Below, piece after piece: positions 8,096 to 11,609 of a stretch of 11,609 nucleotides of DNA; within the stretch, counting starts at the first letter, position 1; every line of letters begins with the position of its first letter. The stretch is from a virus (Duplodnaviria > Heunggongvirae > Uroviricota > Caudoviricetes): the IMG/VR virus record IMGVR_UViG_2537561686_000004; one strand, 5' to 3'. A model generated the notes under the pieces. That model saw nothing but the letters and a program-made list of their open reading frames with translations, searched no databases and had not been told where the DNA came from. A program made the translations under genes and the position numbers.

Positions 8096-8639
8096 AAACG
8101 GGGGCCGAAGCCATCCGGGCGCTGGCCATGCAGATCCCGGCGTTTCGTCAGAAACTGAGCGACGGCTGGTATCAGGTACGCATTGCCGGGCGTGATGCAG
8201 GTGAAACCGAATTGTCTGCCCGTCTTAATGAGCCGCTGGCAAATGGTGCCGTGATCCATATCGTGCCGCGTCTGGCGGGAGCTAAAAGTGGCGGTGTGTT
8301 TCAGGTGGTGCTGGGGGCGGCGTTGATTGCGGTGGCATGGTGGAACCCTGTGGGCTGGCTGGGTGCCGCGGCTGTATCGGGCATGTATGCGGCAGGGGCC
8401 AGTATGATCCTGGGCGGAGTGGCGCAGATGCTGGCACCGAAAGCCAGGACGCCCACGGCAGCAAGTACAGATAACGGCAAACAGAACACCTATTTCTCCT
8501 CACTGGATAACATGGTTGCCCAGGGCAATGTTCTGCCTGTTCTGTACGGTGAAATGCGCGTGGGGTCACGGTGGTTTCTCAGGAGATCAGCACGGCAGAC
8601 GAAGGGGATGGTGGTCAGGTTGTGGTGATTGGTCGCTGA
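7993..8639 (+). CDS. I: tail tip assembly protein I (lambda gpI family), with an apparent frameshift near the C-terminus
   Basis: ATG at 7993, overlapping the last 103 nt of K in a different frame. Translation MAATHTLPLASPGMARICLYGDLQRFGRRIDLRVKTGAEAIRALAMQIPAFRQKLSDGWYQVRIAGRD...TDNGKQNTYFSSLDNMVAQGNVLPVLYGEMRVGSR. After about 8565 this frame reads WFLRRSARQTKGMVVRLW and stops at 8628, whereas a 1-bp-shifted frame reads the protein-like VVSQEISTADEGDGGQVVVIGR ending at TGA 8637-8639. Span is 647 nt, not a multiple of three. Confidence 0.75.
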
Positions 8640-8657
8640 TGCAAAATGTTTTATGTG

Positions 8658-8689
8658 AAACCGCCTCCGGGCGGTTTTGTCGTTTATGG
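8658..8689 (+). terminator. terminator-like stem-loop between I and J
   Basis: Inverted repeat AAACCGCC (8658-8665) / GGCGGTTT (8670-8677) around a TCCG loop, followed by TGTCGTTTATGG, just upstream of the J ribosome-binding site and start. Confidence 0.3.
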
Positions 8690-8699
8690 AGCATGACGA

Positions 8700-11609
8700 A
8701 TGGGTAAAGGCAGCAGTAAGGGGCATACCCCGCGCGAAGCAAAGGACAACCTGAAGTCCACGCAGTTGCTGAGTGTGATCGATGCCATCAGCGAAGGGCC
8801 GGTTGAAGGTCCGGTGGATGGATTAAAAAGCGTGCTGCTGAACAGTACACCGGTGCTGGACAGTGAGGGGAATACTAACATCTCTGGTGTCACGGTGGTG
8901 TTCCGGGCAGGTGAGCAGGAACAGACACCGCCGGAGGGATTTGAATCATCAGGTTCCGAGACGGTACTGGGTACGGAAGTGAAATACGACACGCCGATTA
9001 CCCGGACCATCACGTCGGCAAACATCGACCGTCTGCGCTTTACCTTCGGTGTGCAGGCACTGGTGGAAACCACCTCAAAGGGGGACGGAATCCGTCGGAA
9101 GTCGCCTGCTGGTTCAGATACACGTAAGGTGGCTGGGTGACGGAAAAAGACATCACCATTAAGGGCAAAACCACTCCAGTATCTGGCCTCGGTGGTGGTG
9201 GATAACCTGCCGCCGCGCCCGTTTAATATCCGGATGCGCAGATGACGCCGGACAGCACCACAGACCAGCTGCAGAACAAAACGCTCTGGTCGTCATACAC
9301 CGAAATATCGATGTGAAACAGTGCTACCCGAACACGGCACTGGTCGGCGTGCAGGTGGACTCGGAGCAGTTCGGCAGCCAGCAGGTGAGCCGTAATTATC
9401 ATCTGCGCGGGCGTATTCTGCAGGTGCCGTCGAACTATAACCCGCAGACGCGGCAATACAGCGGTATCTGGGACGGAACGTTTAAGCCGCATACAGCAAC
9501 AACGGCCTGGTGTCTGTGGGATATGCTGACCCATCCGCGCTACGGCATGGGGAAACGTCTTGGTGCGGGATGTGGATAAATGGGCGCTGTATTATCGGCC
9601 AGTACTGCGACCAGTCGTGCCGGACGGTTTGGCGGCACGGAGCCGCGCATCACCTGTAATGCCTCTGACCACCAGCGTAAGGCGTGGGATGTGCTCAGTG
9701 ATTTCTGCTCGCGATGCGCTGTATGCCGGTATGGAACGGGCAGACGCTGACGTTCGTGCAGGACCGACCTCGATAAGGTGTGGACCTATAACCGCAGTAA
9801 TGTGGTGATGCCGGATGATGGGCGCCGTTCCGCTACAGCTTCAGCGCCCTGAAGGACCGCCATAATGCCGTTGAGGTGAACTGGATTGACCCGAAAACGG
9901 CTGGGAGACGGCGACAGAGCTTGTGAGAACGCAGGCCATTGCCCGTTACGGTCGTAACGTCACGAAGATGGATGCCTTTGGCTGTACCAGCCGGGGGCAG
10001 GCACACCGCGCCGGGCTGTGGCTGATTAAAACGGAACTGCTGGAAACGCAGACCGTGGACTTCAGCGTGGGTGCGAAGGGCTTCGCCATGTACCGGGCGA
10101 TGTCATTGAAATCTGCGATGATGACTATGCCGGTATCAGCACCGGCGGGCGCGTGCTGGCGGTGAACAGCCAGACCCGGACGCTGACGCTCGACCGTGAA
10201 ATCACGCTGCCATCTCCGGACCACGCTGATAAGCCTGGTTGACGGAGGGATCCGGTCAGCGTGGAGGTTCAGTCCGTCACCGACGGCGTGAAGGTGAAAG
10301 TGAGCCGTGTTCCTGACGGCGTTGCTGAATACAGCGTTGGGGGCTGAAGCTGCCGACGTGCGCCAGCGCCTGTTCCGCTGCGTGAGTATCCGTGAGAACG
10401 AGACGGCACGTATGCCATCACCGCCGTGCAGCATGTACCGGAAAAAGAGCCATCGTGGATAACGGGGCGCACTTTGACGGCGACCAGAGCGGCACGGTGA
10501 ATGGTGTCACGCCGCCGCGTGCAGCACTGACGCCGAAGTCACCGCAGACAGCGGGGATATCAGGTCTGGCCGCTGGGAACGCCGAAGGTGGTGAAGGGCG
10601 TGAGTTATGCTTCGCCTGACCGTGGCAGCGGATGACGGCAGTGAGCGGCTGGTCAGCACGGCCCGGACGACGGAAACCACTTACCGCTTCACACAACTGG
10701 CGCTGGGGAACTACAGGCTGACAGTCCGGGCAGTAAATGCGTGGGGGCAGCAGGGCGATCCGGCGTCGGTATCGTTCCGGATTGCCGCACCGGCAGCGCC
10801 GTCGCAGATTGAGCTGACACCGGGGTATTTTCAGATAACCGCCACGCCGCATCTTGCGGTTTATGATCCGACGGTACAGTTTGAGTTCTGGTTCTCGGAA
10901 AAGCGGATTGCGGATATCAGGCAGGTTGAAACCACAGCCCGCTACCTTGGCACGGGGCTGTACTGGATAGCCGCCAGTATCAATATCAAACCGGGCCATG
11001 ATTATTACTTTTATATCCGCAGTGTGAACACCGTTGGCAAATCGGCATTCGTGGAGGCCGTCGGTCGGGCGAGCGATGATGCGGAAGGTTACCTGGATTT
11101 TTTCAAAGGCAAGATAACCGAATCCCATCTCGGCAAGGAGCTGCTGGAAAAAGTCGAGCTGACGGAGGATAACGCCAGCAGACTGGAGGAGTTTTCGAAA
11201 GAGTGGAAGGACGCCAACGATAAGTGGAATGCCATGTGGGCTGTCAAAATTGAGCAGACCAAAGACGGCAAACATTATGTCGCGGGTATTGGCCTCAGCA
11301 TGGAGGACACGGAAGAAGGCAAGCTGAGCCAGTTCCTGGTTGCCGCTAACCGTATCGCGTTTATTGATCCGTCTAATGGCAACACAAGACCAATGTTTGT
11401 TGGTCAGGGCGATCAGATATTCATGAACGACGTGTTCCTGAAACGCCTGACGGCTCCGACCATTACCAGCGGCGGTAATCCTCCGGCATTTTCCCTGACA
11501 CCGGACGGGCGGCTGACGGCGAAAAATGCCGATATCAGCGGTAACGTGAATGCGAACTCCGGGACGCTCAACAACGTCACGATTAACGAGAACTGTCGGG
11601 TTCTGGGAA
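8700..11609 (+). pseudogene. J: central tail fibre / host specificity protein J (lambda gpJ family), 3-prime end beyond window; frame disrupted many times between about 9105 and 10605
   Basis: ATG at 8700 (GGAG at 8686-8689) gives MGKGSSKGHTPREAKDNLKSTQLLSVIDAISEGPVEGPVDGLKSVLLNSTPVLDSEGNTNISGVTVVF...VETTSKGD, matching the lambda J N-terminus; this frame is lost at about 9105 (stop at 9140). J-like peptides then appear in alternating frames: KQCYPNTALVGVQVDSEQFGSQQVSRNYHLRGRILQVPSNYNPQTRQYSGIWDGTFKP...WCLWDMLTHPRYGMGKRLGA (9313-9570), DVDKWALY (about 9570-9595), QAIARYGRNVTKMDAFGCTSRGQAHRAGLWLIKTELLETQTVDFSVGA (about 9930-10075), SVEVQSVTDGVKVKVSRVPDGVAEYS, and AIVDNGAHFDGDQSGTVNGVTPP (about 10455-10520). 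From 10604 to the window end one frame is intact. Confidence 0.8.
10604..11609 (+). CDS. J: intact C-terminal-proximal segment of J (frame continuous to window edge; not an independent gene)
   Basis: Frame 2 is open for 335 codons with no stop. Translation (M)[98 protein letters not shown]...[49 protein letters not shown]...[28 protein letters not shown] resembles the fibronectin-III-like and distal regions of lambda J. Confidence 0.75.

Follow-up and report, generated by a model that had tools for sequence, protein, structure and literature searches.

The frameshifts that interrupt tail genes I and J in the 11,609-nucleotide stretch of viral DNA analysed here (IMG/VR record IMGVR_UViG_2537561686_000004, hereafter the window) are technical and not a real biological feature. 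Very probably they are a consensus artefact of merged, near-identical lambdoid copies and not a property of the phage: bases are missing almost only where natural variants of these genes differ, and we therefore ascribe the interruptions to the consensus and not to biological damage. In the DNA itself, both genes are most likely intact. This reading draws on what can be observed directly, namely the rule by which the deletions are located, the total lack of insertions in the damaged part of J, the intact coding signal that emerges on repair and the recurrence of the pattern in other draft assemblies. The frameshifts provide no evidence of a broken host-range gene, and conclusions about infectivity or prophage decay are unwarranted from them.

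Interrupted frames in the tail module

The window holds a lambda-type tail module that runs from E to J, with the M-L-K-I-J order of bacteriophage lambda, whose I and J also have the same Pfam domains. Aligned to annotated lambda-type K, I and J genes of phages and E. coli prophages, the region shows 94-97% nucleotide identity, and alignment, tblastn and Pfam all support the names I and J given in the initial annotation. Compared with lambda I and J, the window frames are interrupted as written, but they become ordinary members once the dropped columns are restored. The features that matter for the argument are as follows.

2630-2684, plus strand: major tail gene V, same kind of damage as in J (seven 1-bp deletions within 55 bases)
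6860-7360, plus strand: L and the start of K, same kind of damage (in L, 36 deletion events, 49 bases)
7993-8639, plus strand: tail tip assembly gene I, lambda I family (Pfam PF06805, tblastn, translations)
8570-8571, plus strand: lone 1-bp deletion in I; a CGT (Arg) codon lacks its T at 8571 (global alignment)
8700-11609, plus strand: tip attachment and host specificity gene J, codons 1-986 of ~1131 (annotated homologues, tblastn, Pfam)
8700-9085, plus strand: intact N-terminal part of J, 128 codons (zero indels relative to the references; translation)
9086-10605, plus strand: damaged block of J (49 bases lost in 44 deletion events, 0 insertions)
10606-11609, plus strand: intact part of J with the Ig_J, Ig_J_second and Phage_Tail_Tip domains, frame 2 (tblastn, translation, Pfam)

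Once its frame is repaired, the I protein scores 84.7 bits with PF06805 (Lambda_tail_I), well above the curated cut-off (23.8). A one-base deletion near 8565-8575, with the C-terminus readable in the adjacent frame, had been noted previously, and we locate it at 8571, with the C-terminus in frame 3. Because this base is missing, the frame-1 open reading frame (7993-8628) closes with 18 wrong residues (...GSRWFLRRSARQTKGMVVRLW), and the real C-terminus, VVSQEISTADEGDGGQVVVIGR, is found as 22 residues in frame 3 with its stop at 8637-8639. In agreement with this, tblastn places residues 1-169 of I in frame 1 and residues 167-191 in frame 3. Thus no uninterrupted frame leads to the conserved C-terminus ...VVVIGR, an interruption that we attribute to the consensus artefact. 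The deleted base occupies a wobble position, in a column where the reference bases are G/G/T, and is the only gap when I is aligned to references of the same allele. A cluster of insertions and deletions at 8322-8464 was considered as further damage and rejected, as it reflects allelic divergence from the first reference used. Two deletions in K, at 7844 and 7849, appear in comparison with one reference locus (L003) and are absent in comparison with another K allele; they are probably errors in K of L003, a gene that is itself annotated as frameshifted.

In J, the initial annotation counted 135 intact codons; there are 128, since the first deletion, at 9086, falls in codon 129, and an out-of-frame reading frame extends past that point as far as 9140. 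The frame changes that it reported beyond this point are real, but its count of at least eight is far too low for the 44 events seen between 9086 and 10605 (39 of 1 bp and five of 2 bp), and J as written has no continuous reading frame. Its view that J becomes continuous from about 10604 holds, with a clean frame from 10606 to 11609, and tblastn returns fragments of J in three frames. J runs past the end of the window, so its C-terminal receptor-binding domain lies outside. The gpJ domain series comprises FNIII-A_GpJ, Phage-tail_3, Ig_J, Ig_J_second, Phage_Tail_Tip and Ig_GpJ_C; from the readable parts of J, Pfam recovers Ig_J_second and Phage_Tail_Tip together with partial matches to FNIII-A_GpJ and Ig_J. 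The stretch that would hold Phage-tail_3, at residues 330-498 in an intact relative, falls within the damaged block and is recovered both as the three-frame tblastn fragments and within the repaired frame. When the 49 bases are restored, J reads through 986 codons without a stop and matches an intact J at 99% identity, with 8 amino-acid differences. Substitutions in the damaged block number 19, of which 16 are silent and 3 change an amino acid. Of ~125 other J loci aligned to the same reference across their first 2.2 kb, 69 were gapless and most others had 1-4 gaps.

Location of the missing bases

Deletions were placed by pairwise affine alignment with explicit handling of equivalent gap placements, which replaced MAFFT multiple alignments that fused adjacent gaps and blurred their positions. 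Relative to the best reference, the whole window shows 99 deletions and 13 insertions, most of the latter being allele or reference noise. The deletions are concentrated at the wobble position: 43 of the 47 unambiguous 1-bp deletions in the window fall on codon position 3 and the remaining four on position 1 (binomial p = 1.1e-16), all 30 of the ambiguous 1-bp deletions can be placed on position 3, and within J this holds for 37 of 39. They are equally selective with respect to natural variation. Columns that are polymorphic among 8 references contain 38 of the 44 J events (15% expected, p = 2e-25), and with 49 distinct natural J alleles the count rises to 41 of 44 (28% expected, p = 2e-19), leaving 3 events on panel-invariant columns. 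The errors lie where alleles differ in L and V as well, with 32 of 36 deletion events in L (23% expected, p = 7e-17) and 7 of 7 in V (21% expected) on polymorphic columns. In L, the deleted columns are the differences between alleles of the NZ_LR883006 and NZ_CP082083 types, and once their 10 discordant columns are taken out, the two alleles give exactly the text of the window at 6900-6919.

This selectivity is what makes generic random noise, arising from unpolished or low-coverage long reads or from homopolymer miscalls, a distinctly unlikely source of the damage. Noise of this kind should show no preference for a codon position and should be indifferent to the variability of a column, neither of which is seen. 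The high ratio of indels to substitutions and the block-wise spread of the damage are typical of poorly polished long reads, and the nearest relatives indeed include a PacBio record of low quality, annotated with many frameshifts, but that record shows a sparse mixture of insertions and deletions, unlike the pattern in the window. The window does have one true homopolymer-type insertion, an additional G at 2275 in a run of G; this is an ordinary homopolymer error, separate from the proposed dropping of columns. We reject a homopolymer origin for the deletions, as 55 of the 99 sit in runs of length 1, and the zero count of insertions in J likewise speaks against noise. The technical cause put forward in the initial annotation, which cited the way in which clean and damaged blocks alternate (a feature that we find also in V, L and K with the same signature), is therefore borne out, but not in the form of generic noise: the missing bases are at codon position 3 and on polymorphic columns, a bias that points to a consensus for which paralogous copies, or those of a phage mixture, had been merged.

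The same signature recurs in other assemblies. Four unrelated, independent contigs from isolate drafts in IMG/VR (L119, L097, L051 and L061) have 65, 31, 30 and 17 deletions, respectively, in the same part of J, with 0-1 insertions there, and share the bias towards codon position 3 (57/60, 27/30, 25/29 and 13/15). In part, the sites too are the same. The defect thus affects four or more contigs in a viral sequence collection that is in wide use, where it would be expected to fragment the gene calls for J, L and V and to give rise to spurious annotations of defective prophages. Where errors are deletions only and lie on wobble or polymorphic positions, a merged-copy consensus can be told apart from both random noise and true pseudogenes with no need for a reference.

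Biological alternatives

E. coli commonly carries defective lambdoid prophages whose tail genes are broken, and the RefSeq annotation of the closest record marks H, L and K as frameshifted or internally stopped, so that the window might be thought to derive from a cryptic, non-infective prophage with real frameshifting deletions in I, J, L, K and V. We consider such genuine decay very unlikely. Mutational deletions have no reason to favour synonymous sites that vary in the population, and 44 deletions, 0 insertions and 19 largely silent substitutions in 1.5 kb are not the spectrum of neutral decay; the codon-indifferent indels and relaxed constraint of a decaying pseudogene were not found. Moreover, there is no damage in the neighbouring genes H (859 codons) and M or in the final 335 codons of J within the window, and the pattern is repeated, partly at the same sites, in the unrelated assemblies described above.

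The deletions could also be physically present in the DNA if some process removed the mismatched nucleotide from heteroduplexes of recombining lambdoid alleles. Like the merging of copies, such a process predicts deletions exactly at inter-allelic SNPs, but nothing favours it over the technical explanation, and the damage affects few draft assemblies as against thousands of clean finished genomes, which leaves it extremely unlikely.

Recoding of I and J by programmed ribosomal frameshifts or another decoding device has a negligible probability, because homologous J genes are continuous (the 69 gapless loci and the annotated full-length genes), no slippery motif is common to the 44 sites and the out-of-frame stretches are mostly tens of bases long. 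The precedent for it, the frame change of lambda G/GT, belongs to the same tail gene cluster and is present in the window, where GGGAAAG at 3361-3367 is a genuine programmed -1 site at which the G and T frames overlap. However, lambda G/GT employs one slippery site conserved in all homologues, whereas the frame changes in I and J are motif-free and absent from homologues.

Proposed merging of alleles: route, precedents and candidate parents

From the sequence of this particular assembly we infer that copies were merged in it, and the merged-copy artefact can be pictured as follows. The source reads or sequences would derive from at least two related lambdoid alleles, ~3-10% apart, contributed either by co-resident prophages of one E. 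coli genome or by a mixed phage population. Merging would take place where the alleles are similar enough, that is, in V (2630-2684), in L and K (6860-7360), at one site in I and in J (9086-10605). At columns of disagreement no call would be reached and the column would be omitted from the consensus, so that each dropped SNP column would appear as a 1-bp deletion, or as one of 2-6 bp where SNPs adjoin. Clean text would represent stretches to which only one allele contributed, or in which the alleles were too different to be merged. Candidates for the step at which columns would have been dropped are the averaging of flow signals in a 454/Newbler-type consensus, a partial-order-graph consensus in which nodes of <50% support are passed over, and the later stripping of ambiguity symbols. 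Exact matching of a 64-mer from the damaged text (9081-9144) and of the unique 30-mer across the additional G at 2275 gave no hit in viral, genome and metagenome collections; the 30-mer, itself free of damage, would also have matched a source contig with ambiguity symbols at the damaged sites.

Errors of a comparable kind have been described in E. coli. Comparison of the 454 draft of strain EC958 with its PacBio finish (PMC4134206) uncovered localised clusters of discrepancies dominated by indels, as in the window; these include a collapsed 3.7-kb repeat with 11 substitutions and 4 indels and a prophage tail region, present in two coexisting sequence versions, with 2 substitutions and 20 indels. 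The placement of indels within codons was not analysed in that paper, and in the window it is mostly codon position 3. Collapsed repeats, in which reads of slightly diverged copies are joined, are known by the sites at which the copies differ (Phillippy, Schatz and Pop 2008; PMC2397507), and the errors in the window lie on exactly such sites. In a classical collapsed repeat, however, the piled-up reads show correlated SNPs at these sites and one of the bases is kept in the consensus, whereas the consensus of the window keeps none, and each SNP is therefore turned into a frameshifting deletion.

An exhaustive search over pairs of alleles accounted for part of the events. For J (47 distinct gapless alleles), 22 of the 44 events are covered by the best pair, which has 21 extra differences; for L (15 alleles), the best pair covers 24 of 36 and has 10 extra differences. 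No single pair in these two panels accounts for all events. The panel may lack the true parents, or the merger may have involved more than two copies. The two copies of ETEC E1779, one on the chromosome (L003) and the other on its 'plasmid 2' (L004), were considered as parents and rejected, as they differ from each other at few of the deleted sites; the plasmid copy has sparse mixed indels only. The segment is multi-copy in E. coli genomes generally, with a median of 3 copies per genome and up to 14-15 places, and two contigs of one IMG genome (L091 and L102) share the same I allele.

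Frame disruption in genes I and J

The window (11.6 kb) comes from an E. coli phage or prophage of lambda type and covers its head-tail and tail module, in the order end of E, FI, FII, Z, U, V, G/T, H, M, L, K, I and J (first 986 codons). Annotated prophages align with it end to end, the top match being the chromosome of the ETEC isolate E1779 (NZ_LR883006.1; 97.0%, 11,609 versus 11,711 bases), and lambdoid phages match it at 94-96%. Pfam identifies I as Lambda_tail_I and finds domains of the tip attachment protein J in the readable portions of J. Aligned globally with the best reference, the window differs from it by 225 substitutions and has 99 deletions and 13 insertions, the damage being distributed as follows.

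2630-2684, gene V: seven 1-bp deletions in 55 bases, all at columns polymorphic among V alleles
3794-6373, gene H: intact 859-codon ORF, part of the long clean stretches between damaged blocks
6860-7360, genes L/K: the densest damaged block of the window; gene L has 36 deletion events (49 bases), some of 2-6 bp where SNPs adjoin
7360 and 7739, gene K: deletions
8571, gene I: one deletion
9086-10605, gene J: 44 deletion events of 1 or 2 bp (49 bases), 0 insertions

The initial annotation had described the disruption of I and J correctly in kind and in coordinates, underestimating its extent in J: it counted at least eight frame changes where we find 44. J starts at 8700 and its first deletion, at 9086, falls in codon 129, so that the clean start comprises 128 codons, slightly fewer than the 135 proposed; the frame is continuous from 10606 to the window end. 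Against the same reference, the first 2.2 kb of J shows no gaps in 69 of ~125 other loci and mostly 1-4 in the remainder, and the damage in the window is far in excess of that in natural J genes. Restoring the 49 bases yields 986 codons with no stops, whose product differs from an intact J by 8 amino acids, and the 19 substitutions in the damaged block alter only 3 amino acids. The sequence that remains in J bears the signature of a working gene.

The frame-1 ORF of I (7993-8628) ends in 18 wrong residues, and the true C-terminus, VVSQEISTADEGDGGQVVVIGR followed by a stop, is indeed found in the adjacent frame (frame 3, up to 8639), as had been noted. An apparent indel cluster at 8322-8464 in I was rejected as damage and represents another natural allele of I: one 63-mer from it recurs exactly in >119 viral contigs, and against the contigs sharing it the I region shows a single gap. 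Within the 60-base I-J spacer, a G+C-rich hairpin at 8659-8686 is followed by a T-rich run (AACCGCCTCCGGGCGGTTTTGTCGTTT); it was not listed by a simple terminator scan, and phage record MF807953.1 has a terminator annotated somewhere in the stretch that aligns with window 8000-11596.

Placement of the deletions

The deletions are not ordinary sequencing noise, and their placement, by codon position and at polymorphic columns, is the decisive result. Outside any homopolymer lie 55 of the 99. Among the 47 unambiguously placed 1-bp deletions, 43 hit the third codon position and 4 the first (binomial p = 1.1e-16), and for each of the 30 ambiguous ones a placement at position 3 is possible. With eight reference J alleles, 38 of 44 events fall at variable columns versus 15% expected (p = 2e-25); with the larger panel (49 distinct natural alleles for J), events at polymorphic columns number 41/44 in J (28% expected), 32/36 in L (23% expected) and 7/7 in V (21% expected). 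The V and L/K blocks carry the same artefact signature as J. In a three-way alignment of gene L, the dropped columns are those that differ between NZ_LR883006-type and NZ_CP082083-type alleles; window 6900-6919 is exactly reproduced by these two alleles minus 10 discordant columns, and 24 of the 36 events in L are explained by one pair of panel alleles.

The codon-position and polymorphism tests contradict true pseudogene decay, and so do the silent-substitution spectrum and the fact that the pattern recurs in other assemblies. The two tests also contradict noise of the random long-read or homopolymer kind, as does the lack of insertions. An extra G in a G-run at 2275 (GGGG versus GGG in the reference) moves V, the major tail gene, out of frame 2 into frame 3 after codon 21-23; it is a homopolymer-type error of the ordinary sort, unlike the wobble-site deletions in kind. 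Programmed frameshifting in I/J is contradicted by the continuous frames of homologues and the lack of a motif at the shift sites. The one genuine programmed frame change of the window, distinct from the artefacts, is at the slippery heptamer GGGAAAG (3361-3367), where the frames of G and T overlap (ORFs 2963-3385 and 3367-3801); we take it to be the site of the programmed -1 frameshift of lambda G/GT.

Probable merging of lambdoid alleles and recurrence of the artefact

The simplest account of the deletions is allele merging with omission of undecided columns: at least two lambdoid alleles, differing by ~3% in J and locally by up to ~10% in L, would have been merged when the sequence was assembled or its consensus built, and any column lacking a clear majority would have been left out. 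Candidates for the step that dropped them may include flow-signal averaging, a graph consensus skipping nodes of minority support, and the stripping of ambiguity symbols. Exact searches of viral, genome and metagenome collections did not find the source contig. The substrate for merging is ubiquitous: a complete E. coli genome has this segment in three places at the median and in up to fifteen. Lambdoid mosaicism would make the merging patchy.

In IMG/VR, four unrelated contigs of isolate drafts have deletions in the same part of J: 65 in L119 (IMGVR_UViG_2531839332_000012), 31 in L097 (2529292832_000022), 30 in L051 (2531839126_000015) and 17 in L061 (2531839486_000007). They show 0-1 insertions, the same codon-3 bias as the window and 9-19 of its 44 J sites, and L119 has wobble-position deletions in I and L/K too; the artefact is the same, and gene calls on all four contigs would be fragmented by it. 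There is published precedent: the 454 draft of E. coli EC958 has indel-dominated discrepancy clusters in a repeat that was collapsed and in a prophage tail region of which two versions exist (2 substitutions, 20 indels; PMC4134206), and co-assembled repeats are recognised in general by the sites at which their copies differ (PMC2397507).

The suspicion of a technical cause in the initial annotation is thereby supported and sharpened to deletions at wobble or polymorphic sites, with no insertions in J. The I/J frameshifts are not a real biological feature and license no inference on host range or infectivity. What is of lasting value is only the diagnostic, that deletion-only errors at wobble or polymorphic sites point to a merged-copy consensus, and the warning that such errors are present in public viral contig collections.

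Observations on related records

Window 1-1500 is identical to the prophage on the E1779 chromosome. Within 6800-11153 of this closest 'complete' genome, RefSeq flags frameshifts in H and K and an internal stop in L; since H is intact in the window, some indels in the first alignment are errors of the reference. Another record of the E1779 assembly, the 46-kb 'plasmid 2' (NZ_LR883007.1), is a second copy of the same phage in which frameshifts are annotated in each of FI, U, G, H, K, J and lom; it is probably a low-quality duplicate or an excised-phage contig. In a related prophage, in NZ_CP082083.1, a reverse-transcriptase-domain protein gene and an adjoining SLATT-domain gene (17974-19873) lie directly downstream of the tail fibre genes; the pair looks like a candidate prophage-borne defence cassette, unconnected with the frameshifts.
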